From contig CAZGKV010000002.1 in assembly GCA_964526305.1 (NCBI GenBank), forward strand, positions 9,599-73,598: DNA of 64,000 nt. The letters are read 5' to 3'. Below the pieces are notes generated by a model. It had not been told where the DNA came from and did no database searches. It saw nothing but the letters and a program-made list of their open reading frames with translations. A program made the translations under genes and the position numbers. This document shows positions 18,418-62,255 of the stretch, piece after piece. Source of the DNA: an uncultured Planctomycetales bacterium. GTDB taxonomy: Bacteria; Planctomycetota; MHYJ01; JACPRB01. Within the stretch, counting starts at the first letter, position 1. Every line of letters begins with the position of its first letter.

Positions 18418-20415
18418 ATGCCCCTGAGCCTGGTTCTCCTGGCCGCCGGGGCGATGGCGTTCAGCGGCATCCCCGGGCTCCTCTTCCACTGGCGCTCAAG
18501 AATCGGCCAGTGGATTGCAATGGTCTTCGCAGTCGGCGCGGCCGGGGCCGGGCTCATGGGAGCGTTCGGAGGGATCTTCCAGGCTGAGGCGAGTCTCCGC
18601 GTGCCGTGGCCACTCCCTGGCGCAGAACTGAACGTCCGACTCGATGCCTTGAGCGGTTTTTTCCTCGTCCCCATCTTCCTCATCGGAGGCCTGGGCTCAA
18701 TCTATAGCTTGGGGTATTGGAGCCAACAGGATCGGCCTCGGACCGGCAGGCAGGTGCGGTTCTTCTACGGAGTCCTCGTCGCGGGGATGGCGGTCCTCGT
18801 CGTTGCGAAGAACGGCATTCTCTTCCTCTTCGGTTGGGAGGCAATGGCGCTTGCCTCCTTCTTCCTCATTACCGCCGAATCCCACGATCCCGAGGTGCGC
18901 AAAGCGGGATGGCTCTACTTGATGCTGACCCATGTCGGGACGCTTACTCTCTTCGCGGTGTTCGCGCTGCTGCGGAAGGCGACTGGGTCCTTCCTGCTGA
19001 GACCACTCGGGGTCGAAGAGGCCGGACTCGGGACGTTGATGCTCCTGTTCCTCCTCATGCTCATTGGATTCGGCATGAAGGCGGGCTTGATGCCTCTCCA
19101 TGTCTGGCTTCCGAGCGCGCACGCCAGCGCCCCGAGCCACGTTTCCGCCCTCATGTCCGGGGTGGTGATCAAGATGGGCATCTACGGATTGGTTCGATTC
19201 CTGGGGATGATGCCGCAGCCGCCCGTGAGCTGGGGGGCGATCCTCCTGCTCCTGGGGACGATCAGTGGAGTCGTCGGCGTCTTGTTCGCGATCGGACAGC
19301 ACGACCTCAAGCGTCTCTTGGCCTATCACAGCGTCGAGAATGTCGGCATCATCGTCATGGGGTTGGGTGTCGCGATGCTCGGTCGGTCGTTGGGACGACC
19401 GGATTGGGTAATCCTGGGGTTGGCCGGTTGTCTCCTCCATGTTTGGAACCATGGGTTGTTCAAGGCCCTCCTCTTCCTGGGGGCGGGCTCGGTCATTCAC
19501 GCAGTTCATACTCGTGAAATCGATCGGATGGGCGGCTTGGCCAAGTCGATGCCTCGAACCGCACTCCTGTTCTTGATCGGAGCGGTTGCGATTTGCGGGT
19601 TACCTCCCCTCAACGGGTTCGTGAGCGAACTGCTCGTGTACATGGGATTGTTCCGAACGCTGGGCATCGGCGCGGGGCCGTCCTGGGTCCAGGCGGCGCC
19701 GGCCGCTCCCGCATTGGCTCTGATCGGCGCTCTGGCCGTGGCGTGTTTCGTCAAGGTCTTCGGTGCGGTTTTCCTCGGGAGCGCTCGAAGCCACGATGCG
19801 GAGGGCGCCCGCGAGTCTTCCTGGCCTATGGTCGGAGCCATGGGTGTTCTGGCCGTCTGCTGCGTCGCCATCGGGGTGGCGCCCGTCCTCGTGGGGCCTG
19901 TCCTCGACCGAGCCGCTGCGGCATGGACGAATCAGCCGTTACCCGGCGTCGGCTCGCTCGCCCCGTTCCGGCCGCTGACCTTTCTCGGCGTTGGACTCCT
20001 CGGAGCCATCGCGGCGGGGTGGGCGCTTCTCTCTCGTGTCCGCACTTCGGGCGGAGTGGGAACCTGGGATTGCGGATATGCGGCACCGACCGCGAGGATC
20101 CAATACACGTCCTCCTCCTTCGCCGACACGTTGGTGGGCCTGTTCCGCTGGGTGCTGCGTCCGCGCGTCCATCGTCCTCATCTCGAGGGAATCTTCCCCG
20201 GGGGCACCCGATTCGCGAGTCGCGTGGACGACACGGTTCTCGACGGCCTACTGGCGCCGGCGGCGCGCGCGGCCGAGAAGGCCGTCGGGCGTGTGAAGGT
20301 ATTCCAACAGGGGAGTTCGCAGCGATACATCCTGTACGTTCTCGTCGCGCTCGTTGGGCTGCTGCTTTGGTCTTTCCCGCTGGAGCGCCTGTTCCTCAAG
20401 CTTTTTTCGAGGTGA
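18418..20415 (+). CDS. NuoL/MrpA/HyfB-like antiporter-type membrane subunit of hydrogenase-4/Ehr-like complex
   Basis: 665 aa, about 16 TM helices. WLPSAHASAPSHVSALMSGVVIK and HSVENVGIIV motifs typical of NuoL/HyfB proton-translocating subunits. Confidence 0.85.
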   Translation: MPLSLVLLAAGAMAFSGIPGLLFHWRSRIGQWIAMVFAVGAAGAGLMGAFGGIFQAEASLRVPWPLPGAELNVRLDALSGFFLVPIFLIGGLGSIYSLGYWSQQDRPRTGRQVRFFYGVLVAGMAVLVVAKNGILFLFGWEAMALASFFLITAESHDPEVRKAGWLYLMLTHVGTLTLFAVFALLRKATGSFLLRPLGVEEAGLGTLMLLFLLMLIGFGMKAGLMPLHVWLPSAHASAPSHVSALMSGVVIKMGIYGLVRFLGMMPQPPVSWGAILLLLGTISGVVGVLFAIGQHDLKRLLAYHSVENVGIIVMGLGVAMLGRSLGRPDWVILGLAGCLLHVWNHGLFKALLFLGAGSVIHAVHTREIDRMGGLAKSMPRTALLFLIGAVAICGLPPLNGFVSELLVYMGLFRTLGIGAGPSWVQAAPAAPALALIGALAVACFVKVFGAVFLGSARSHDAEGARESSWPMVGAMGVLAVCCVAIGVAPVLVGPVLDRAAAAWTNQPLPGVGSLAPFRPLTFLGVGLLGAIAAGWALLSRVRTSGGVGTWDCGYAAPTARIQYTSSSFADTLVGLFRWVLRPRVHRPHLEGIFPGGTRFASRVDDTVLDGLLAPAARAAEKAVGRVKVFQQGSSQRYILYVLVALVGLLLWSFPLERLFLKLFSR

Positions 20416-20419
20416 GAGG

Positions 20420-21328
20420 GTGGTCGAGAGGATCGTTCACGTCGTCTTGTTCTTGACGATGCCTCCGCTCTTGCTCGGAGTCATCCACAAGACGAAAGCT
20501 CTCTTCGCCGGTCGGGTCGGGCCTCCCGTTCTTCAGCCGTACTTCGATCTCATCAAGTTGATGCGGAAGGGCATGGTGTTGAGCTCGACCACCACCTGGA
20601 TCTTCCGCGCGAGCCCGGTGGTCACGGTGGCGACCGTCCTCCTGGCGGGCCTCCTGATTCCACTCGGTCGATTCGACGCTCCGATCGTATTCGCCGGGGA
20701 TCTGATTCTCTTCGCGTACCTGTTCGCCCTCGCCCGATTCTTCACCACCGCGGCGGCGCTGGACACCGGATCTCCCTTCGAGGGGATGGGAGCGGCGCGG
20801 GAAGTCACCTTCGCCTGCTTCTCGGAACCCGCGCTCTTCTTCGCGCTTCTTTCGCTCGCCAGACTCAGCGGCTCGGTGAGTCTCACGGCCATGCTCCACT
20901 CGGCGCAGTTCGGCGGCGCAGGGCTCTCGAGCGCGGCCCTCCTTCTCGTCGCCGTCGGGCTCTTCCTCTTCCTTCTCTCCGAGAATTGTCGGATACCGGT
21001 GGACGATCCGAACACGCACCTCGAGCTCACGATGATCCACGAGGTCATGGTGCTCGATCACGGCGGGCCCTTGTTCGGGATGATCCTCTACGGGGCGTCG
21101 CTGAAGCTCTTCGTGCTGAGCGCGCTCTTTGTCCACGTGGTGGCCCCCATTCGGACGACTCGTCCTTGGCTCGACACGGGGATCTTCGTCGCCCTCATGA
21201 TCGGCGTGGCCGTGCTGGTGGGAGTCGTCGAGTCGGTGATGGCCCGTCTCCGGATGCGGCACGTGCCGACGCTCCTCATCGCGTCGTGCCTTCTGTGCGG
21301 CTTCGGATTTCTCCTCCTGGTGAGATGA
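20420..21328 (+). CDS. NuoH/HycD/HyfC-like membrane subunit
   Basis: GTG start 5 nt after the previous stop. Multi-TM protein with the NuoH-family region (DPNTHLELTMIHEVMVLDHGGPLFG). Confidence 0.8.
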   Translation: MVERIVHVVLFLTMPPLLLGVIHKTKALFAGRVGPPVLQPYFDLIKLMRKGMVLSSTTTWIFRASPVVTVATVLLAGLLIPLGRFDAPIVFAGDLILFAYLFALARFFTTAAALDTGSPFEGMGAAREVTFACFSEPALFFALLSLARLSGSVSLTAMLHSAQFGGAGLSSAALLLVAVGLFLFLLSENCRIPVDDPNTHLELTMIHEVMVLDHGGPLFGMILYGASLKLFVLSALFVHVVAPIRTTRPWLDTGIFVALMIGVAVLVGVVESVMARLRMRHVPTLLIASCLLCGFGFLLLVR

Positions 21329-21329
21329 C

Positions 21330-21974
21330 ATGCTGACGACGGCGGCCGACGCGATCCTCATCGTGGTTCTCCTGATGAATCTCTTCATGCTGGGGACGAG
21401 TCGGATCAACTCGGTGATCCGGATCGTCGCGGCCCAGGGGGTGGCGCTCGGGGTGATGGCCCTGATCCAGCACGGGGAATTGGGATTGCGGACCGTCCTC
21501 CTCGCCGGTGCGACGATCGCCGTCAAGGGGGCCGTCATTCCCTGGATGCTGACCCGCGCGATGCGTCAGGTGCAGATCAAAAGGGAGGTGGAGCCGCTCG
21601 TCGGCTTGGTACCTTCGATGCTCTTGGGGGCCGCCGGAACGGGTCTGGCCGTGCTCTTCGCGGCGCAGCTTCCCATCGTTCGGGGACACGGCTCGTCGCT
21701 GATCGTGCCCGCTTCGCTCGCAACCGTATTGACCGGATTCGTTCTTCTGACCACGCGGATCAAGGCCATCAGCCAGGTCCTGGGATACCTCGCGCTCGAG
21801 AACGGAATCTTCACCTTCGGTCTCCTGCTCCTCGAGGCGATGCCGTTCTTGGTGGAGATCGGGGCGTTGCTGGATCTCTTCGTGGGCGTCTTCGTGATCA
21901 GCATCATCATCCACCACATCAATCGGGAGTTTGCGACCTTGGATACGCGGAAGCTCTCCACGCTCAAGGACTGA
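21330..21974 (+). CDS. HyfE-like (hydrogenase-4 component E) small membrane subunit
   Basis: 214 aa with 6-7 TM helices, directly abutting the previous gene. Size, hydropathy and position match HyfE of hyf operons. Confidence 0.7.
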   Translation: MLTTAADAILIVVLLMNLFMLGTSRINSVIRIVAAQGVALGVMALIQHGELGLRTVLLAGATIAVKGAVIPWMLTRAMRQVQIKREVEPLVGLVPSMLLGAAGTGLAVLFAAQLPIVRGHGSSLIVPASLATVLTGFVLLTTRIKAISQVLGYLALENGIFTFGLLLLEAMPFLVEIGALLDLFVGVFVISIIIHHINREFATLDTRKLSTLKD

Positions 21975-21978
21975 CGCC

Positions 21979-23412
21979 ATGGCTCTCGCGATGGTTCTCG
22001 CCCCGATGGCGCTGGCGCTCGTCGCCTGGGCCGTTCCCAGCGACCGCCTTCGAGTCTGGGCGCTTCCGCTCGGAGGCGTCGCCCAGATTGCGGCCACGGG
22101 GATCAGTTTGTGGCGTCCCGGCCTTCCCACCGGCGGAAGTTGGCTCGTCCTCGACGCCCCCGGCCGCGTCGTTCTCGTCACGATCAGCGCGCTCTTCTTC
22201 TTGTGCAGCCTGTACGGGGTCGGCTACTTGCGCTACCGGACCGAGAGGCCCAACCGCGTGTTCTGCAGCTGCCTCCTGCTCCTGCTGGGGATCATGAATC
22301 TGGTCGTCTGGTCCCATCATTTGGGGTTGATGTGGGTGGGGATCGAGGCGACGGCCCTGGCTACGGCGCCGCTCCTCTATTTCAATCGGACCCCGCAATC
22401 CATCGAGGCGACGTGGAAGTATCTCCTCGTCGGCTCGGTCGGAATCGCCCTGGCCCTCTTCGGTTCCTACTTCCTGGCGTATTCCTCGCTGCACGCCGGC
22501 CATGCGTCGTCCCTCATGTTCGACGATCTCCTTCGAATCGCTCCGCATCTCTCCAAGCCGTGGCTGCACGTCGCGTTCGTTCTGCTCCTGGTGGGATACG
22601 GGACGAAGATGGGAATCGCGCCGCTCCACACCTGGAAACCCGACGCGTACGGCGAGGCTCCGGGACTCGTGGGCGCGATCTTGGCCGGAGGGGTCACGAA
22701 CTGCGCGTTCCTCTCGCTCCTGCGCGTCTATCGCATCTGCGTCGCGGCGGGGGAGGGACCGTTCGCGGGGCGCATGATGATCTTCCTGGGACTCCTCTCG
22801 ATGGCGGTGGCGGGCGCGTTCATGATCGGGCAACGCGATCTGAAGCGGATGCTCGCCTACTCGAGCGTCGAGCACATGGGGATCCTCACCTTGGGCGTCG
22901 GGATCGGCGGCGGGGCTCTCTTCGGTGCGATGCTCCATCTCGTCAACAACGGAATGACGAAGGGGATCACGTTTCTGGCCGCGGCGAACATCCATCGGGC
23001 CTTCGGGAGTAAGGCCACCGGAGCCGTAGCCGGAGCCATGCGGCGCCTCCCCGTTTCGGGGACCCTCTTCCTGGCCGGATTCCTTGCGATCACCGGGTCG
23101 CCTCCTTTCGGACCGTTCGTGAGCCAGTTCGCGATCTTCAATGGAGCCGTCGCCGGCGGACGCGCCTGGATCGCGTTTCTCTTTCTGGCCTTCCTCGCCG
23201 TGGTGTTCCTGGGGATGGGAACGACGGTGCTGCGGGCGGTGCAGGGACGGCCCTCCGCAGCGGCCATGGCATCGCCATACCGGGATGGAGTCCTCACCAC
23301 GGTTCCCCTGCTCGTTTTCCTCGGGGTCGTTCTGATGTTGGGGGTGTACATTCCCGAACCGTTGCGGCGAATGCTGACGGAGGCGGTGGCCTTCGTGGAG
23401 GGCCGGCCATGA
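21979..23412 (+). CDS. NuoN/NuoM/HyfF-like antiporter-type membrane subunit
   Basis: ATG 21979 starts 5 nt after HyfE stop. WKYLLVGSVGIALALFG, PLHTWKPDAYGEAP, YSSVEHMGILTLGVG: NuoN/HyfF motifs. Confidence 0.85.
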   Translation: MALAMVLAPMALALVAWAVPSDRLRVWALPLGGVAQIAATGISLWRPGLPTGGSWLVLDAPGRVVLVTISALFFLCSLYGVGYLRYRTERPNRVFCSCLLLLLGIMNLVVWSHHLGLMWVGIEATALATAPLLYFNRTPQSIEATWKYLLVGSVGIALALFGSYFLAYSSLHAGHASSLMFDDLLRIAPHLSKPWLHVAFVLLLVGYGTKMGIAPLHTWKPDAYGEAPGLVGAILAGGVTNCAFLSLLRVYRICVAAGEGPFAGRMMIFLGLLSMAVAGAFMIGQRDLKRMLAYSSVEHMGILTLGVGIGGGALFGAMLHLVNNGMTKGITFLAAANIHRAFGSKATGAVAGAMRRLPVSGTLFLAGFLAITGSPPFGPFVSQFAIFNGAVAGGRAWIAFLFLAFLAVVFLGMGTTVLRAVQGRPSAAAMASPYRDGVLTTVPLLVFLGVVLMLGVYIPEPLRRMLTEAVAFVEGRP

Positions 23413-24908
23413 ATCGGTTTCGGCCGATGTTCCCCGGCAAGGCCGTGGAATTGGACGAGGTGCCTCGACTGGGCCTCGCCGAATTTCAGCAGTCGATCGT
23501 CGAGGGGGTGAGCGCGGGGGCGAGGATCTCGGCGCTGTTCGGCGCGGGTTCCCAGGTCGTCACCCTCTACGGCGTCCTGGCGGACGATCCGGAGAGCCGA
23601 CTCCTGGTGGCAAGGAGCGAGGTGGAGGGAGATTCGTTCGAATCCATTACGCCTCGATGCCCCCAAGCGCATCTTTTCGAGCGGGAGATTGCGGAACAAT
23701 TCGGACTGATGCCCCGAGGCCATCCCTGGCTGAAGCCCGTTCGGTTTCATCCTTCCTACCGGCCGGGACACGCCGTCTGGCCGGATCCGACGATCGGCGT
23801 CACCGACTTTTACCGGGTCGAAGGCGAGGAGATCCACGAGGTGGGAGTCGGCCCCGTCCACGCGGGAGTGATCGAGCCGGGGCACTTTCGGTTCCAATGT
23901 CACGGCGAGGAAGTCTTCCACCTGGAGATTTCCCTGGGATACCAGCACCGGGGAGTGGAGCCGGCCCTGGTGGGGGGACCGAACCGCAGAACGATCCACC
24001 TCATGGAAACGACGGCGGGCGACACCACCGTGGGGCACGCGACGGCCTACTGCGAGGTCATGGAAGCCCTGACCCGCTGCCAGAAATCGGCCCGCGCGCA
24101 GGTCCTGAGGGGGATCGCCCTCGAGCTGGAGCGGCTGGCGAATCACGTGGGGGATCTGGGGGCGTTGGCGAACGACGTCGGGTTTCTCCCGACGGCCTCC
24201 TACTGCGGTCGCATTCGGGGCGACTTCCTCAACATGACCGCACTTCTGTGCGGGAGCCGCTTCGGACGGGGATTCCTTCGGCCGGGCGGCGTAGGGTTCG
24301 ACGTGGACGATGTGCGAGTCGGGACGCTCCTGGAGCGGCTGGCCGCGGCGCAGAAGGACACGAGGGTGGCGGTCGATCTGTTGTGGGCGAGCCCCTCGGT
24401 GATGGCACGGTTCGAGGAGACCGGTGCCATACCAAAAGAGGTATGTACACAGTTGGGACTCGTCGGGCCCGCCGCACGGGCGTGCGGCGTCGAATTGGAC
24501 GTGCGTCGCGATCAGCCGTCGGGAATCTACCGGTTCAGTCACATCCCGGTTGCGAGTTGGCCGAGCGGAGATGTGTTCGCGCGGGCGTACGTGCGGTGGC
24601 TCGAGATCGAGCGATCGATCCTCTTCATCCGGGAGCAGCTCAAGGCGCTGCCGTCAGGATCGGTGGGGGTGGATGCCGGGAGTCCGCAGCCCGACCGCAT
24701 CGCGGTCTCGTTGGTGGAGGGATGGCGGGGGGAAATCTGCCATGTTGCGCTGACCGATGCGGAGGGCCGGTTCTTGCGGTACAAGATCGTCGATCCCTCC
24801 TTCCACAACTGGACCGGCCTGGCGTACGCGCTACGAAATCAACAGATCTCCGATTTTCCGCTGTGCAACAAGAGCTTTAATCTCTCGTACTGCGGGCACG
24901 ACCTATGA
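23409..24908 (+). CDS. [NiFe]-hydrogenase large-subunit homolog (fused NuoC-NuoD/HycE-like) that apparently lacks the N-terminal Ni-binding CxxC
   Basis: ATGA overlap. GPVHAGVIEPGHFRF...HRG...TVGHATAY aligns to the HycE GPLHVTSDEPGHFRL...RVCGICGFAHSTAY region (HycE recalled from memory), but with AGDTTVG in place of CGICGFA. C-terminal ISDFPLC...SYCGHD retains one Cys of the DPCxxC L2 motif with aberrant spacing. Confidence 0.8.
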   Translation: MNRFRPMFPGKAVELDEVPRLGLAEFQQSIVEGVSAGARISALFGAGSQVVTLYGVLADDPESRLLVARSEVEGDSFESITPRCPQAHLFEREIAEQFGLMPRGHPWLKPVRFHPSYRPGHAVWPDPTIGVTDFYRVEGEEIHEVGVGPVHAGVIEPGHFRFQCHGEEVFHLEISLGYQHRGVEPALVGGPNRRTIHLMETTAGDTTVGHATAYCEVMEALTRCQKSARAQVLRGIALELERLANHVGDLGALANDVGFLPTASYCGRIRGDFLNMTALLCGSRFGRGFLRPGGVGFDVDDVRVGTLLERLAAAQKDTRVAVDLLWASPSVMARFEETGAIPKEVCTQLGLVGPAARACGVELDVRRDQPSGIYRFSHIPVASWPSGDVFARAYVRWLEIERSILFIREQLKALPSGSVGVDAGSPQPDRIAVSLVEGWRGEICHVALTDAEGRFLRYKIVDPSFHNWTGLAYALRNQQISDFPLCNKSFNLSYCGHDL

Positions 24909-25660
24909 TCGATGTCTTTCTCGCGCGGCTTCAGCAGAAGCACCGGACGATTCCGTTTCCCGGTCACGAGCCGACGCTTCCCGATCTGTTCCGAGGGAGG
25001 CCGGAGATCGACGGCTCGAAGTGTCCCGAGGGGTGTCGCGATTGTGTGGAGGCTTGTCCGACCGGCGCGGTGAAGCTGGAAGGAGGAGTCTCCGTGGATC
25101 TGGGGCGCTGCCTCTTCTGCGCGGAGTGTTCGCGGGCATGTCCGCAGGGGGCGATCACCCATACGCGGGATTATCGGATGGCGACCCGCGCACGCGAGGA
25201 CTTGGTCCTGTCTGGAAAGGCGATGGAGCTGGCGAAGGCCCTCGACGGGAAGATGCGATCGCTCTTCGGGCGATCCCTCAAGCTGCGTCAGGTCAGCGCC
25301 GCAGGTTGCAACGCCTGCGAGGCGGACGTCAACGTCCTGAACACCGTCGTCTTCGACCTCGGGCGATTCGGAATCCAGATCGTCGCTTCGCCACGCCATG
25401 CGGACGGCCTTCTCATCACGGGTCCGGTATCGCGGAACATGAAGCTCGCGCTCGAAAAAACTTACGCCGCGGTCCCGCCTCCCAAGCTCGTGATCGCGGT
25501 GGGGGCATGCGCGATCAGCGGCGGGCCCTTCGTCGATTCCCCCGAGGTCTGCAATGGAGCGGGCGGAATCGTGCCGGTGGATCTCTACATTCCGGGATGC
25601 CCTCCTCATCCGATCACCATTCTCGACGGACTCCTCCGGTTGTTGGGGCGCATCTCATGA
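24905..25660 (+). CDS. fusion of 2x[4Fe-4S] ferredoxin (NuoI/HycF-like) and NuoB/HycG-like hydrogenase small subunit
   Basis: ATGA overlap. CPEGCRDCVEACP and CLFCAECSRACP ferredoxin motifs. Then NuoB-type cluster ligands GCNACE, GACAISGGP, PGCPPHP. Confidence 0.8.
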   Translation: MIDVFLARLQQKHRTIPFPGHEPTLPDLFRGRPEIDGSKCPEGCRDCVEACPTGAVKLEGGVSVDLGRCLFCAECSRACPQGAITHTRDYRMATRAREDLVLSGKAMELAKALDGKMRSLFGRSLKLRQVSAAGCNACEADVNVLNTVVFDLGRFGIQIVASPRHADGLLITGPVSRNMKLALEKTYAAVPPPKLVIAVGACAISGGPFVDSPEVCNGAGGIVPVDLYIPGCPPHPITILDGLLRLLGRIS

Positions 25661-25705: not shown

Positions 25706-26017
25706 ATGTGGCCGTGGATCATCCTGGCGGCCGTATGGGCTGCCGCGGGGTATCAGGCGTGGCACGCGTATCGCCAGGCGCGGATGGCGGAGCCCGCGAA
25801 TCCGCTCGCGGCGATCGCGGCGCGGGTGAAGGTGGGGCTCGGTTTCCTCTGGGCGATCCTCATGCTCTTGGCCGGAGCGATCGCGTCGTTGACGGTGGCC
25901 TCGGCCGAGAAGAATCGCGTCGCCTCCTGGGCGGCCGGGGGGACGATGGCGCTGGCGGTCTTGGGCGGGATGGGAGCGTGGAAGTGGTTCTGGAGGCGTC
26001 GACGAACGGCGTCGTGA
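25706..26017 (+). CDS. small membrane protein, hypothetical (3 TM)
   Basis: 103 aa hydrophobic ORF between the Ehr-like operon and the ion-channel gene. Stop 26017 lies 8 nt before the channel ATG. Confidence 0.4.
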   Translation: MWPWIILAAVWAAAGYQAWHAYRQARMAEPANPLAAIAARVKVGLGFLWAILMLLAGAIASLTVASAEKNRVASWAAGGTMALAVLGGMGAWKWFWRRRRTAS

Positions 26018-26025
26018 CACCGGGA

Positions 26026-26787
26026 ATGGAACTCAAGAACGTCGTAGAATCGAAGTGGTTCCGCACTACGGTGGCGCTGCTCATCGGCCTGAATGCGCTG
26101 GTGGTAGGGGCCGAGACGTATCCCCAAGTTACAAGCCGCTTCGGGAAATGGCTTGAGGCGACCGATCGCATCATTCTCGTCCTCTTCGCGGTGGAACTGG
26201 TGCTTCGGTTCATCGCCACGCCGCCTCGGTATCGGTTTTTCCTCAACGGATGGAATCTCTTCGACATCGTGATCGTGAGTGCCGGATTCGTGCCGGCAAC
26301 CGAATACCTCTCGGTCCTGCGGTTGCTGCGGATCATCCGAATCCTCCGCGCCGTGACGGTGATGCCCCATCTGCAGAAACTGGTCCTGGCGCTCTTGAGG
26401 AGTCTCCCTTCTCTGGGGCACATCGCCTTCCTACTCGGCCTTCTCTTCTTCGCGTTCGGGGCGACGGGTACCTATCTCTTCCGGGACGTGGATCCGAACA
26501 ACTTCGGCTCCCTTCACCGATCGATGCTGACGCTCTTCGGCGTCGTCACGCTGGAGGGATGGGTCAGCGTGATGGAGGGGCTGCTGAAGCACAAACCATG
26601 GGCGTGGCTGTACTTCGTCAGCTTCATCCTCCTCGGAACGTTCATCTCCATGAACCTGTTCGTCGGCGTCCTCGTGAACAACCTCCAATCCGCCGAGGCG
26701 GAAGACAAGGAGGCTCACGACAAGGCCGTACGCGATCGCCTGGCCCGGATCGAAGAGAAACTCGACGCCCTCCTCCCTCCCCGATGA
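26026..26787 (+). CDS. voltage-gated cation channel (NaChBac/NavAb-like single-domain ion transport protein)
   Basis: S4 voltage sensor with Arg every third residue (LSVLRLLRIIRILRAV). Pore/selectivity region FGVVTLEGWVSVM (TLESW-like). 6-TM architecture. ATG 26026 chosen rather than the upstream in-frame 25708. Confidence 0.8.
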   Translation: MELKNVVESKWFRTTVALLIGLNALVVGAETYPQVTSRFGKWLEATDRIILVLFAVELVLRFIATPPRYRFFLNGWNLFDIVIVSAGFVPATEYLSVLRLLRIIRILRAVTVMPHLQKLVLALLRSLPSLGHIAFLLGLLFFAFGATGTYLFRDVDPNNFGSLHRSMLTLFGVVTLEGWVSVMEGLLKHKPWAWLYFVSFILLGTFISMNLFVGVLVNNLQSAEAEDKEAHDKAVRDRLARIEEKLDALLPPR

Positions 26788-26852
26788 TATAGAAATAGCC
26801 AGGCTTCTTTTATATCATGATATAAAAGAAGCCTGGCTATTTCTATATCATC
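26783..26852. repeat. perfect 70-bp AT-rich palindrome (35-bp arms, no spacer)
   Basis: GATGATATAGAAATAGCCAGGCTTCTTTTATATCAT|GATATAAAAGAAGCCTGGCTATTTCTATATCATC is exactly self-reverse-complementary. It starts inside the channel stop codon (TGA 26785-26787). About 30% GC in a ~67% GC context. No T-tract follows. Confidence 0.9.
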
Positions 26853-26927
26853 GAGACAAAGGGGGGCGCCGACTCCATGCGGCCGGGTGTTGACGGCGAG
26901 GCCTCAACCCGCTATGAATCTCCCTTG

Positions 26928-27653
26928 ATGGACGCGGTACCGATGATCGAGGCCCAGGGCCTCTGCAAGTATTACGGCTCCTTTGCCGCACTTCGGGACG
27001 TCAGCTTCTCGGTTCCGCAGGGCCAGGTCGCCGCCTTCTTGGGGCCAAACGGGGCGGGGAAGTCCACCACGATGAAAATCCTGACGGGCTTTCTTGCACC
27101 CAGCTCCGGCACCGCCCGCATCGCGGGTTGCGACGTATCGACCCAACGACTCGCGGCCGCGAAGCACCTCGGATACCTGCCCGAGAACGGGCCTCTCTAC
27201 CTCGACATGACTCCCATCGCCTTGCTCCAGTTCTTTGGGAAGGCGCGCGGGATGGGCGGCGCGCTCCTGCAGCAGCGGATCGGAGAGCTCGCGGGACGAT
27301 GCGGCATCGAACCGGTTCTCTACAAGCCGATATTCAAACTCTCCAAAGGATACCGCCAACGCGTAGGAATGGCCCAAGTCCTCCTCCACGATCCGAGCGT
27401 CCTGATCATGGACGAACCGACGTCCGGCCTCGACCCCAATCAGATCCGAGACGTGCGCGCCACCATCCGAGAACTTGGCAAAACCAAGACGATTCTGCTT
27501 TCGACCCATATCCTTCAGGAGGTCCCCGCGATGGCGGACCGCGTGATCTTCATCCACGACGGCCGGATCGTCTTCGACGGGACGCCGAAGGAGATGTGCG
27601 CGGAGAGCGAATCCTTGGAAGTATTCTTCCACCAGAAAACGGGGGCCCTCTAG
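26928..27653 (+). CDS. ABC transporter ATP-binding protein (GldA-like)
   Basis: Walker A GPNGAGKST, signature LSKGYRQRV, Walker B LIMDEPTSGLD, H-loop. Start at ATG 26928 (the track's 26877 ATG lies just after the palindrome and is equally possible). Confidence 0.85.
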   Translation: MDAVPMIEAQGLCKYYGSFAALRDVSFSVPQGQVAAFLGPNGAGKSTTMKILTGFLAPSSGTARIAGCDVSTQRLAAAKHLGYLPENGPLYLDMTPIALLQFFGKARGMGGALLQQRIGELAGRCGIEPVLYKPIFKLSKGYRQRVGMAQVLLHDPSVLIMDEPTSGLDPNQIRDVRATIRELGKTKTILLSTHILQEVPAMADRVIFIHDGRIVFDGTPKEMCAESESLEVFFHQKTGAL

Positions 27654-59517: not shown

Positions 59518-61029
59518 TCACGGCACCCGTTTCCATCCCTCGGACTCAGGCTGGCCCGGCCAGGCCCTGACGGCCTTTCCCTTCAGATCCTGGCCGTACA
59601 CCTCGCCGACCGCGTTGATGATCAAGGTGCGCTCTCCGCTGACGCCATGACGCTCGGGGAAGGCGCAGAAGGCGAACGTGGAGAGGTGATGGACCGCCCA
59701 CCCGCTGCGATCGGTGTCTATCGCAAAGGGCTCGCCGGAGGCTCCCCGGTTCAGAACGGCGAAGAAGTACCCGCGGTGAGGTCGGGCGTGGAGAGGGGGC
59801 CCGAGGCGGGCCTCGTCCGATAGCGGCGCCGCATCGGCGCACGCGATCCCTTCCTCGATCAGAGCGAGGGGCGCACCCGCCACCCGGAGGCGATGGAGAC
59901 CCGACACGTCCCCGGTCCAAAAATCCCGCACGCCGTTCCGGTCGCGATCGTGTTCTTGGAACTCGTATTCGGAACGGAGGAGGGCACGGAGAGCCCCGAC
60001 CGCCTCGGCTTCGTTGACTCGGCATTCCACGAGAGAGCGGCGAAGACGTCCGGTGGCCGAGGCGACGCGACCGCGACAATCGATCCGCAGATTCTCCAGC
60101 CACTCCTCGAATCCTCCCAGAGCGGCCCGAGTCCGCGGTTCGTCGTCTCCCGCACCGTATCCAACGACATAGGAAAAGGCCGCTTCTTCCGGAGAGGTCG
60201 ACCGAAGACTCGCTCCCGCTCCCTGGGACCCCGCGGGAGCCGAAGCGAGGAGCCCGCGCGTCATCGTCGACATGCGCGTCCGCTCCTCGACTCCCGGCGA
60301 TTTCGAGAGCCACATCCAATTTCCCCGCGGAAGCCGACCGAGAGTCCTCCTCTGCGCCGGGGTCAGCCCTTGGAGAAAACGCTTTGCGCGACCTTCGCGC
60401 GCCTCCAGAGCTTCGAGGACAAGGGGGGGTGGGCCGGAGAGGATTCGGGTCCGAGAAACCCAGACCGCCTCTTCCGATCGCGGGTAGACGTAGAGCCGCT
60501 CGACCTTGGACGAGTCGACGACGTACCCGCGCGAGAGAAGATCGCTGCCGATCGAGGGCGGTGTGAAGTCTCCGGCGTGCACGGTCAACGATTTCCCCGC
60601 ACGGAAGACCGTGGCCGTCTCCTTCGTGTCGCCGAAGGGAAGAGCTTCCGGGGGAAAGAACGAGATGCCCTTGGAGGTGCGATAGACCACGAAGTCTCCA
60701 TCGGGAAGTTCGCTCACGAGTTCGGGGATCGGGGAGGAGGGGAACAGATAGAACCAGCCGACGATTCCGACGGCGACAACGACGATGCCGGCGGCGACCC
60801 GAATTCCGATCTTGCGGCCGAGCCGGCGGCCGGAGGGGCGCGGCGCGAGAAGCGCTCCGAGCGCCTCGGGGTCGGGTTCGCGTTCGACGATCCGGAATCC
60901 AGGATCGGAGGACTCGATCGGCGCGATGACCACTTCGGTGCATGCGCGGCATCGGACACGGCGGCCGGCCAGGGCGTCGTCGATCCGGAGTCGCGCGGAG
61001 CAGCGGGGACAGGCGAACGCTACGGGCAC
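59518..61029 (-). CDS. zinc-ribbon (MJ0042-type CxxC..CxxC) membrane protein, hypothetical
   Basis: N-terminal ACPRCSARLRIDDALAGRRVRCRAC. TM VAAGIVVVAVGIVGWFYLF. Large C-terminal domain of unknown function. Start uncertain: GTG 61029 (MPVAFACPRC...) preferred over the track's GTG 61074; both lie inside the 43-bp palindrome. Confidence 0.55.
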   Translation of the reverse strand: MPVAFACPRCSARLRIDDALAGRRVRCRACTEVVIAPIESSDPGFRIVEREPDPEALGALLAPRPSGRRLGRKIGIRVAAGIVVVAVGIVGWFYLFPSSPIPELVSELPDGDFVVYRTSKGISFFPPEALPFGDTKETATVFRAGKSLTVHAGDFTPPSIGSDLLSRGYVVDSSKVERLYVYPRSEEAVWVSRTRILSGPPPLVLEALEAREGRAKRFLQGLTPAQRRTLGRLPRGNWMWLSKSPGVEERTRMSTMTRGLLASAPAGSQGAGASLRSTSPEEAAFSYVVGYGAGDDEPRTRAALGGFEEWLENLRIDCRGRVASATGRLRRSLVECRVNEAEAVGALRALLRSEYEFQEHDRDRNGVRDFWTGDVSGLHRLRVAGAPLALIEEGIACADAAPLSDEARLGPPLHARPHRGYFFAVLNRGASGEPFAIDTDRSGWAVHHLSTFAFCAFPERHGVSGERTLIINAVGEVYGQDLKGKAVRAWPGQPESEGWKRVP

Positions 61030-61068
61030 TGGTAAAAGGTAGCCCGTGCGGCTATCTTTTACCAGTGC
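61026..61068. repeat. 43-bp near-perfect palindrome (19-bp arms, 5-bp spacer) covering the divergent start-codon region
   Basis: GCACTGGTAAAAGGTAGCC-CGTGC-GGCTATCTTTTACCAGTGC, with 1 mismatch between arms. Both strands therefore encode similar peptides (…ALVKGSPCGYLLPV… / …ALVKDSRTGYLLPV…). Confidence 0.9.
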
Positions 61069-62255
61069 GCGCACGCACCATTCGAGGCCGCCTCCTGACT
61101 CCCACGTCCCGCGGCCGTTGGCGCGAAGAGAGGGATGCGACGATCCTGGTCGCTCCCGACGGTCGCATCGAGGCGGTGAGGCCGGGGGGAACGTCGGATC
61201 ACGATTGGCGTCCCCATCTGCTGTTCCCGGGATTGATCGACACCCATGCCCATGTGCCTCAGCACTCGGTATGCGGCGTTCGGCGGGGCCGACTCCTGGA
61301 TTGGCTGCGCGAGCTGGTCTTTCCGCTCGAGGCGAAGTGCCGGGGAGAGAATGCGGAGGCGTTCTTCCGGGAAGCGCTTCGGAACGGAACCGTTGCGGGG
61401 GCGTTCTATTCTTCGGCGTGGCCCGAATCCGCCGACGCGAGCCGAGCGACGATGCGCAAGCTCGGAGTGCGTGGCTGGATCGGGATGCCTCTGATGGACC
61501 TTCAGGTGTACCGGGACGATTTGCGAAGCCTCCCTCTCCGCGAGCGCACGAGGAGGGTGATCCGGGAGCTGGAGGAGCAGGTACGGCGCGATGGTTCGAT
61601 TCGCACCGCGATCACGCCGCGGTTCGCGCTCTCCTGCTCGGACGAGTTGCTGGAGGCGGCGGGATCGTTCTCGCTGCCGGTCCAAACGCATATCGCGGAG
61701 CAGCCGGCGGAGGTCCGCCTCGCGCGCCGTAGAGGAAAAGACTATCTCGCCATCTACGAGCGGGCGCGACTGGTTCGTTCGGAGTCGATATTCGCTCACG
61801 GAGTGTGGCTCTCTGCTTCGGAGTGGACTCGGTTGCGGCGGGCGGGGGCGACGATCTCTCATTGCCCGACGTCGAATCTCTTCCTGGGGAGCGGAGTAAT
61901 GGATTGGCGGATCGCCCGGCGGGGACACGTGACGCTGGGATCGGACGTGGGCGCGGGTCCGACGCTGTCGATGTACGAGGTGATGCGATGCGCATGGGCG
62001 GCGCAGGCGTCGCGGGGGAGGGAGGCGCCGGCGGCGCGCGAGCTCCTCGAGGCCGCCACCGTCGGAGGCGCGGCCGCCCTGGGAGAACCTCTGGGTTGTC
62101 TCGAGCCGGGGTGTCGCGCGACGCTTCAGGTTCTCGATCGAGACGCGCTTCTTCTCTCCGAGGAGGACTCGCTCGACGACGTCTTGTCGCGCATCGTCCA
62201 CCGCGGCGGACTCCAGGCGATCCGGGCCGTCTACGTCGACGGAAAGCGGCGGTAG
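61063..62255 (+). CDS. amidohydrolase superfamily deaminase (guanine deaminase / MTA-SAH deaminase-like)
   Basis: GRIEAV...HLLFPGLIDTHAHVPQ (HxH metal site), later HIAE, HGVWL, GSDVGAG (metal/catalytic residues). GTG 61063 chosen as start. The track's ATG 60942 would overlap the divergent gene by more than 100 nt. Confidence 0.7.

Follow-up and report, generated by a model that had tools for sequence, protein, structure and literature searches.

Repetitive extragenic palindromic sequences (REPs), their hairpin-forming doublets (REPINs) and MITEs (miniature inverted-repeat transposable elements) are well known in Proteobacteria and poorly charted in Planctomycetota and in uncultivated lineages. 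In REPINs an inverted doublet of REPs is the replicative unit and is mobilized by RAYTs (REP-associated tyrosine transposases) (PMC3116915, PMC3337134). REP termini often supply the stop codon to flanking open reading frames (ORFs), and some REP dimers of Planctomycetes–Verrucomicrobia–Chlamydiae (PVC) bacteria lie 1–2 bp apart (PMC3733652). The subject here is a perfect palindrome at positions 26782–26853 of a 64-kb stretch (hereafter the window) of an uncultivated Planctomycetota chromosome, located between an ion-channel gene and an ABC transporter operon. This palindrome is a member of a dispersed family of small palindromic repeats, probably of REP/REPIN-like character and not a classical terminator or insulator. 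The family is previously undescribed, and it widens the known range of such repeats in being AT-rich within a GC-rich genome, in having 16-bp stems, and in having neither a tag nor a known transposase.

The palindrome spans 72 bp, with 36-nt arms that are 100 per cent complementary and 0 nt between them. An earlier note on the window had described it as a perfect 70-bp palindrome with 35-bp arms that began inside the stop codon of the channel gene; it is real and has no spacer, but its length is 72 bp, and it begins on the last sense codon of that gene and includes the whole of the stop. It is an inverted doublet of two 33-nt units with conserved CGA/TCG flanks. Unit 1 (26785–26817, + strand; TGATATAGAAATAGCC-A-GGCTTCTTTTATATCA, half-arms A and B') recurs at many other loci and is itself nearly palindromic (26/33) around the centre CCAGG, and unit 2 (26818–26850, + strand; TGATATAAAAGAAGCC-T-GGCTATTTCTATATCA, half-arms B and A') is its exact reverse complement. 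The first three bases of unit 1 are the TGA stop of the channel gene (26785–26787, + strand), which follows a final CGA codon (26782–26784) that is typical of the family. The GC content of the palindrome is 33 per cent (24/72) against 63.6 per cent for the window, so the AT-richness reported earlier (∼30 per cent) stands and the background given with it (∼67 per cent) does not. The runner-up among perfect palindromes in the window is only 16 bp long, 100 shuffles gave zero matches to a 32-nt arm at three or fewer mismatches, and a scan of the 64 kb for further matches to the palindrome arm found none elsewhere.

Perfect palindromes with no spacer are typical of fold-back artefacts and of protelomerase targets. 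The centre of this one, TATATCATGATATA, is reminiscent of such sites, and a cloning or assembly artefact had been raised in the earlier note. That the palindrome is a fold-back product of assembly or amplification, or else a unique site of site-specific recombination or hairpin-telomere resolution, has a next to negligible probability. The 72-bp sequence is identical in two independent JGI metagenome contigs (L001, L002), ENA contig L003 and Logan short-read contig L004 enter it and terminate within it, and its flanks are not inverted copies of one another; because four assemblies agree, an artefact of a single assembly is excluded. A telomere site, suggested by the TATCATGATA centre, was rejected on copy number and context, no specific search for a protelomerase gene having been made: the repeat is dispersed over at least 43 sites in housekeeping operons, plasmid and phage BLAST searches for the element returned no match, and the window is ordinary chromosome. 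Three short-read contigs from different archives end inside the element (L003 at 7391, L004 at 1966 and L052 at 3459), and de Bruijn assemblers typically break contigs at long palindromes. These palindromes therefore fragment metagenome-assembled genomes (MAGs) of the lineage and hide their own copy number, and they can lead to mis-called gene ends in the same MAGs.

The evidence that carries the family assignment is the recurrence of the unit. An exact 20-mer scan of JGI metagenomes gave 44 loci in three samples. When a relaxed unit pattern was applied to these loci and to the window, a total of 47 elements emerged, occupying 43 distinct sites; 30 of the elements are abutting 66-bp doublets and 17 are single units. 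Several apparent singles are truncated by contig ends or paired with a diverged partner, and the true share of doublets is thus higher. The consensus unit is TGATATA-N9-CCWGG-N9-TATATCA (33 nt), in which the invariance of the TGATATA, CCWGG and TATATCA blocks is partly imposed, because the scan needed one exact 20-mer and the pattern fixed those blocks. Since the scan was not exhaustive, having missed L002 (Ga0209399_10001195), a contig proven to carry the 20-mer, the 43 sites are a lower bound on copy number. All of the element-bearing contigs belong to one and the same organism, have 62–66 per cent GC and carry ordinary housekeeping genes. The host population is that of JGI samples 3300022563 and 3300025157 and of the samples that contain Ga0114945 and Ga0137796. 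Among the candidates in the earlier note was a REP/MITE-like mobile palindrome, to be judged by copy number and flanking context; the same 33-nt unit at 43 or more sites is decisive for that candidate, and the possibility that the sequence was unique and without homologues, also named there, falls away.

Searches beyond these samples gave little. The exact arm had one chance 20-mer match among GTDB species genomes, in Niastella and without a palindrome; viral contigs gave 0 matches with the 20-mer and 57 with a 16-mer, all in AT-rich contigs and none with a full unit; Rfam 15 returned no family at its gathering threshold, only generic miRNA hairpin models (45–47 bits vs 81–171); and a literature search for the element sequence found nothing. 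Release factor 1 (RF1) from an element-bearing contig has its closest named relatives (60–84 per cent identity) all in Planctomycetota. Close relatives with a name are lacking for the channel protein and for its neighbours alike, and the homologues of the nearby hydrogenase proteins are ∼70 per cent identical and come from several phyla, so that the hydrogenase does not place the host; RF1 places it in Planctomycetota.

The architecture of the copies points to propagation as a doublet. The junction between units is 0 nt in 27/28 unique doublets, the sole non-abutting case (L022) being two singles 10 nt apart, each independently flanked. A doublet is a perfect palindrome of 66 bp when its inner half-arms match, as they do in the window, and of 72 bp with the CGA/TCG flanks; eight doublets are perfect over 66 bp. 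The stable maintenance of zero-spacer doublets as perfect palindromes of 66–72 bp is a further extension of the known range of such repeats. Half-arms occur as alleles A (TGATATAGAAATAGCC), B (TGATATAAAAGAAGCC), C and D, the last two departing from A and B at positions 8, 11 and 12 only. Type A occupies nearly all outer half-arms, inner half-arms are variable, and unit centres are mostly in the a...t configuration, t...a being rarer. The composite AaA'.BtA' stands at eight unrelated loci and the perfect composite AaB'.BtA' at five, the window among them; the presence of the same composites at unrelated loci means that whole doublets were copied. No covariation upholds either the unit stem or the long stem, and the variants resemble shuffled alleles. 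Outside the unit the flanking base is A at 83/84 ends, followed further out by G (56) and C (48). The resulting pattern, CCGA-TGATATAG...CTATATCA-TCGG, is paired throughout and is an inverted consensus, not a direct duplication.

Three copies have a variant end, CCCAT(T/A)TCCTATA followed by GGATA(T/C)AG (L027 4823–4843, L031 668–688 and L047 4690–4712), in which the terminal TGATATA has become GGATATA and a short extra palindrome, TCCTATAGGA, precedes it. These copies are possibly a subfamily or possibly retain a truncated third unit.

The regularity of the half-arms might also be expected of an array of binding sites for a DNA-binding protein (nucleoid-associated, a global regulator, or a partner similar to gyrase or integration host factor, IHF), in which each unit would consist of two inverted 16-bp half-sites. 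In every half-arm the invariant TGATATA and AGCC blocks are spaced by about one turn of the helix, and only three positions vary, although this invariance stems in part from the search patterns. REP and bacterial interspersed mosaic elements bind host proteins such as IHF or gyrase. AT-rich DNA is moreover conspicuous in a GC-rich genome, and the Correia elements of Neisseria bind host proteins (PMC2649163). Such an array is nevertheless very improbable, given that nucleotide-exact placement at stops and starts and a bias in reading frame, both described below, are features of ribosomes or of insertion that are unexpected of an operator, that the neighbouring genes have no functional theme, and that no regulator gene recurs nearby. 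An operator for a dimeric regulator, another candidate of the earlier note, is likewise unlikely with more than 40 copies at the ORF ends of unrelated housekeeping genes.

Compared with REPINs, the family described here shares a short imperfect palindrome with many extragenic copies, a predominance of the inverted doublet (30/47), able to form either a single long hairpin or two small ones ('clover'), an asymmetric centre that sets two configurations, identical doublets at unrelated loci accompanied by singles, and persistence in related lineages (Bertels & Rainey 2011; PMC3116915, PMC3337134). It differs in that the spacer is 18–112 bp in REPINs and 0 nt here, in that REPIN units are ∼20 nt long and those here 33 nt with 16-bp stems, and in that known REPs are G+C-rich while this family is AT-rich in a GC-rich host. 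A GTAG tag is also absent, the 0.54 Mb sampled yielded no RAYT, and the ends are integrated with stop and start codons. The GTAG and CGTC REP superfamilies, with members in Opitutus terrae and Rhodopirellula baltica (Di Nocera et al. 2013; PMC3733652), offer a second comparison: they too occur as singles or as head–head and tail–tail dimers, mostly downstream of ORFs and between unidirectional and convergent genes, with REP termini acting as stop codons, and the CGTC REPs are likewise without a known dedicated transposase. The unpaired tetranucleotide that defines those superfamilies is absent here, the stem is 16 bp as against 5–13 bp, the stop is a TGA drawn from a paired position, and 12–13 copies abut the downstream start exactly, whereas single REPs of those superfamilies lie at variable distance from the downstream gene. 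The family is therefore best placed as REP/REPIN-like but outside the GTAG/RAYT family, because the tag, the spacer and a consistent target duplication are absent and no RAYT was detected in the sequence sampled.

The window itself supplies the clearest case of insertion. The channel gene (25984–26787, + strand; 267 aa, Ion_trans/PKD_channel, voltage-gated type), whose 3' end is capped by the element, is followed by the gene for an ABC transporter ATPase (26928–27653, + strand), the start of which is inferred from the match of MDAVPMIEAQG to MDAPQPMIEAQG in relatives; the earlier note was right to place the palindrome between an ion-channel gene and an ABC transporter operon, for an Ion_trans gene lies upstream and ABC ATPase and permease genes lie downstream. 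The order of channel gene and ABC ATPase gene is kept in relatives, and the junction is without a palindrome in L050/L051, L053 and L054, whose channel proteins are 66–68 per cent identical. When 70 nt (26784–26853, the 68-nt A...T element and one CG) are removed in silico, the ancestral channel ORF is restored: it reads ...LLPPR-DKGGRRLHAAGC*, regains the Arg-Asp of relatives (...KRD*, ...KRDS*), and stops at TGA 26891–26893, which is the channel stop codon in the empty-site relatives. Removal of 66, 68 or 72 nt does not regain it. Judged from the sequences, the window element is an insertion directly after a native Arg codon, with a new stop 12 codons ahead of the ancestral one. In L052, the closest lineage (NuoB-like protein 85.5 per cent identical vs 81 per cent for L050), the channel gene ends ...CGT CGA TGA TATAGAAATAGCCGGGCTATTTTTA, which is a variant unit in the corresponding place, where the contig breaks off. 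The low GC content, earlier taken to suggest acquisition, characterizes the repeat family and does not mark a horizontally acquired island: the flanks are native and keep synteny with those of relatives.

Filled and empty orthologous junctions between lineages, here and at prfA/prmC, lead us to infer that the element is now, or was recently, a non-autonomous mobile element. A sequence-specific DNA enzyme with its gene at another place would copy it in doublet form, probably by acting on the hairpin in the manner of RAYT or IS200-type enzymes, and would prefer (C)CGA-type targets. The TnpA transposase of IS200/IS605 elements is a Y1 HUH enzyme. Palindrome-associated elements derived from that group (PMC6006769) resemble the present family in lacking a target duplication, in having hairpin-forming ends, and in having a short conserved sequence directly 5' of the insert, in the present case (C)CGA, that may serve as a target in the way of TTAC or TTGAT; they differ in that no TnpA or RAYT was detected here and in that the flank consensus is symmetric on both sides. 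The Correia/NEMIS elements of Neisseria (PMC2649163) are likewise small dispersed inverted repeats by genes with filled and empty orthologous sites; their transcribed hairpin is an RNase III substrate and their ends can create promoters. Those elements measure 100–155 bp and have 26-bp terminal repeats around a core, a TA duplication and an IHF site, while the copies described here have no core, GA/TC flanks in place of TA, and no sequence similarity to them. The sampled loci held no pair of element ends that brackets a transposase, the bracketed genes being ordinary. The fixed-length direct target duplication by which MITEs derived from DDE insertion sequences are recognized was not found either, and inverted repeats are trivially present.

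The copies are placed with unusual precision at the ends of genes, the boundaries of which were taken from crude gene calling based on GC content at third codon positions (GC3) and from Pfam boundaries. At 37 ends a gene reads into the element, and 27 of these genes stop at its TGA (nt 1–3), four at its TAG (nt 6–8), four at an abutting stop of their own, and two a few nucleotides earlier; in 20/27, CGA is the final sense codon ahead of that TGA. At 31 ends a gene reads away, and 12 of these genes begin with the last A of the element plus TG. A C at position −2, which makes the ATG, is enriched at the outgoing ends (13/31 vs 3/37, p = 0.0014). Both ends of the element present TGA inward and A outward, able to complete an ATG, and the element stops two of three frames at once on both strands; no translated-through copy was present among the sampled family sites. 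An apparent read-through at L023 and an apparently gene-free region at L020 were rejected as artefacts of the GC3-based caller, and once corrected these two sites join both boundary classes.

At 12–13 sites the element is the entire spacer between separate, complete genes of conserved operons, with exact abutment at both ends. These include leuD-leuB, prfA-prmC, an ABC ATPase and its permease, gluconate dehydrogenase subunit 3 and a GMC flavoprotein, ccsA-like and hemA, and a bacterial microcompartment (BMC) shell protein and an aldehyde dehydrogenase. Pfam models of the downstream proteins start at residues 2–8 and the domain ends are intact; a split gene or translational bypass was rejected on the ground that the flanking ORFs are different complete genes. 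At the prfA/prmC junction, L115 and L116 have a plain ATGA overlap and L035 has the element. RF1 is of unchanged length in L035 (...LSKR* vs ...LAKR*, ...LGKK* and ...MTKR* in relatives), and therefore the TGA of the element occupies the place of the native stop, and its CGA is the counterpart of a native Arg/Lys codon.

At the same prfA/prmC junction of a related planctomycete, L113 1036–1132 (GCA_016190175.1, JACPRC010000013.1; RF1 84 per cent identical) carries a GC-rich palindrome unrelated to the family. It is ∼97 nt long and imperfect (32-nt arms, 75 per cent complementary) and lies between the copies of a TGAG(CC) direct repeat; the left one retains the TGA stop and the right one yields a GTG start. 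Junctions of overlapping stop and start seem to be tolerated landing sites for small palindromic inserts.

Mycobacterial interspersed repetitive units (MIRUs), reportedly described by Supply et al. in 1997, are intercistronic repeats in operons whose ends overlap the upstream stop and the downstream start. They are direct tandem repeats of 46–101 bp with a small in-frame ORF, and are not palindromes. The overlap with flanking stop and start codons is the point of likeness; the units here are inverted, two of the three frames are closed by them, and none of the copies is translated.

There is reason to be cautious about mobility, and a number of observations weigh against the reading of the palindrome as a REP/REPIN-like mobile repeat. 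Screens for a mobilizing enzyme over 541 kb (phmmer, six-frame tblastn and an HUH..Y motif screen) were negative; they took in every contig with the conserved 20-mer, used reconstructed RAYT and IS200 queries, and sampled the genome in part. No consistent target-site duplication exists family-wide, as a check proposed in the earlier note now establishes: the window and some perfect copies are compatible with a CG duplication of 2 bp, and 33/40 sites are without a matching CG/CG. Neither four sites compared between two metagenomes nor the window site in four assemblies revealed insertion or excision polymorphism. The absence of an unpaired GTAG or CGTC tag and of any inter-unit spacer, and stems of 16 bp where described REPs have 5–13 bp, separate the family from its nearest counterparts. 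Excision in silico (66, 67, 68 or 70 nt) at most other sites regains no nearby native stop, clean restoration of an ORF being confined to the window and to 70 nt. The arms of the window element and of L052 are more conserved than the adjoining coding DNA (proteins 68–85 per cent identical), which hints at constraint or continued homogenization rather than neutral junk. Genes use the TGA and TAG frames in a ratio of 27:4, where random insertion followed by purifying selection predicts ∼1:1 (p = 3e-5), and the codon phase of candidate targets predicts the opposite bias; a codon-phase bias of CCGG, CGATCG or GATC targets was accordingly rejected as the cause, CGATCG and GATC favouring other frames. 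Finally, the functions that we infer for the hairpin in RNA, set out below, are all drawn by analogy.

Two accounts of this placement offer themselves: the element targets ORF ends, for instance a (C)CGA beside a stop, or the exact geometry of stop, hairpin and start is favoured by selection. The latter would suit a domesticated intercistronic 'punctuation' module, kept by selection because its hairpin defines gene ends in polycistronic mRNA. Insertion or retention of such a module would be limited to places at which its terminal TGA serves the upstream gene as a stop, and within operons its final A would open the next gene. The stop codon would lie at the 5' foot of a 33-bp stem and the following start at the 3' foot, so that the fold would set UGA beside AUG. 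Ribosomes might then terminate and reinitiate over the hairpin, in a bacterial analogue of ribosome shunting or hopping, or RNase III might cut exactly between the cistrons and so give them different stabilities. The double abutment at 12–13 conserved-operon sites with canonical N-termini, the frame bias that target phase does not explain, the enrichment of C at −2, the arms conserved at one site in the L052 lineage, and the CCGA/TCGG clamp of G-C pairs on an AU-rich stem are all consistent with a module of this kind. This explanation is nonetheless unlikely. Three relatives lack the element at the channel junction and two lack it at prfA/prmC, and most junctions in the window, ATGA overlaps included, are element-free; copies also lie between convergent and divergent genes and away from starts; the stems are not maintained by covariation; and the start-codon calls come from the crude gene calling described above. 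Dependence on Shine–Dalgarno (SD) sequences is also slight in the host, and a missing SD, considered as a sign of special coupling, was dropped: it needs no special mechanism because SD use is weak genome-wide. If such punctuation were true, these repeats would be portable stop/start signals acting on both strands, and a new relation of mobile DNA to operon architecture. On any reading, stop/start integration in essential operons offers a natural system in which to ask in what way long hairpins at cistron boundaries are tolerated or exploited, and a second question posed by the family is whether some mobile elements target ORF ends.

First among the candidates of the earlier note, for this site between channel gene and ABC operon, was a super-stable bidirectional terminator/insulator. 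As RNA, the palindrome region does fold very stably (−75.8 kcal/mol, z = −13.7 vs shuffles), and the long hairpin is favoured over two unit hairpins both as RNA (−54.7 vs −17.4 kcal/mol) and as DNA (−36.6 vs −8.7), with long-hairpin energies of −46 to −55 kcal/mol across doublets and with the CCGA/TCGG flanks closing the AU-rich stem. A simple scan marks terminator-like sub-hairpins within the palindrome, the window copy lies at a gene end, 39 nt ahead of the ABC operon's conserved promoter-like block, and attenuation of transcription is possible for REPs (PMC3337134). A terminator or insulator is nevertheless disfavoured, and its probability is slighter even than that of a protein-binding array, because there is no U-tract, the stem is AU-rich (33 per cent GC), and whole-spacer copies stand in operons whose genes need co-expression; relatives, in addition, have no hairpin at all at the channel–ABC junction. 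The tail after the stem is UCGAGACAAAGG, which bears out the earlier remark that a U-tract is missing. The element thus does not show the combination of G+C-rich stem, U-tract and transcription-unit end that marks an intrinsic terminator.

Once transcribed, a repeat of this REP/REPIN-like kind would form an AU-rich hairpin of 33–36 bp with the stop codon at its start. Ribosomes are stalled by REPs that lie within 15 nt of a stop (cited in PMC12306157), and Correia elements are bound by RNase III and are either cleaved or protected by it (PMC2649163). By analogy with both, the most likely roles of the hairpin are to bar the way to 3' exonucleases, possibly to offer a site to RNase III, and to slow ribosomes at the stop codon; it would not be an obligate transcription terminator.

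A native spacer block (26889–26919, + strand; GTTGAC-N17-CCCGCTATGAAT), resembling −35 and −10 hexamers, is conserved between the element and the ABC ATPase gene; the pattern common to the window, L050 and L053 is GTTGAC-N17-CCCGCTAYRA, and the ancestral channel stop lies within its −35-like hexamer. Within the block, TTGACG-17 nt-TATGAAT ends 9 nt upstream of the ATPase ATG (26928), and the block looks like a promoter that would yield a nearly leaderless mRNA. Inside the doublet there are also mirror-image sigma-70-like hexamer pairs (TAGAAA-17-TATCAT; 26790–26845, both strands; 9/12 consensus matches), which are a consensus match only, in AT-rich DNA of a GC-rich genome, with no evidence of function.

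Elsewhere in the window, a hairpin at 61023–61071 (22-nt arms, 91 per cent complementary; 5-nt loop) lies at the 5' end of a gene on the − strand (59518–61074) and has a core, TAGCC...GGCTA, that resembles the repeat unit; it was rejected as a family member, being unique in the 0.54 Mb sampled. Upstream of the channel gene stands a cluster (18418–25660) like those of group-4-type membrane-bound [NiFe] hydrogenases and Mrp antiporters, with Proton_antipo_M, NADHdh, Complex1_49kDa and Oxidored_q6 domains together with Fer4, and with ATGA overlaps that carry no element. Between its NuoB-like hydrogenase gene and the channel gene lies a small hydrophobic ORF (25706–26017; 103 aa, no Pfam family) that overlaps the start of the channel gene and keeps its position in L050, L052 and L053 (93–102 aa). 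In L050, an AT-rich tandem direct repeat unrelated to the palindrome family (2226–2256; two copies of TTAGTCGTTAGAG) lies upstream of a TetR-family gene.

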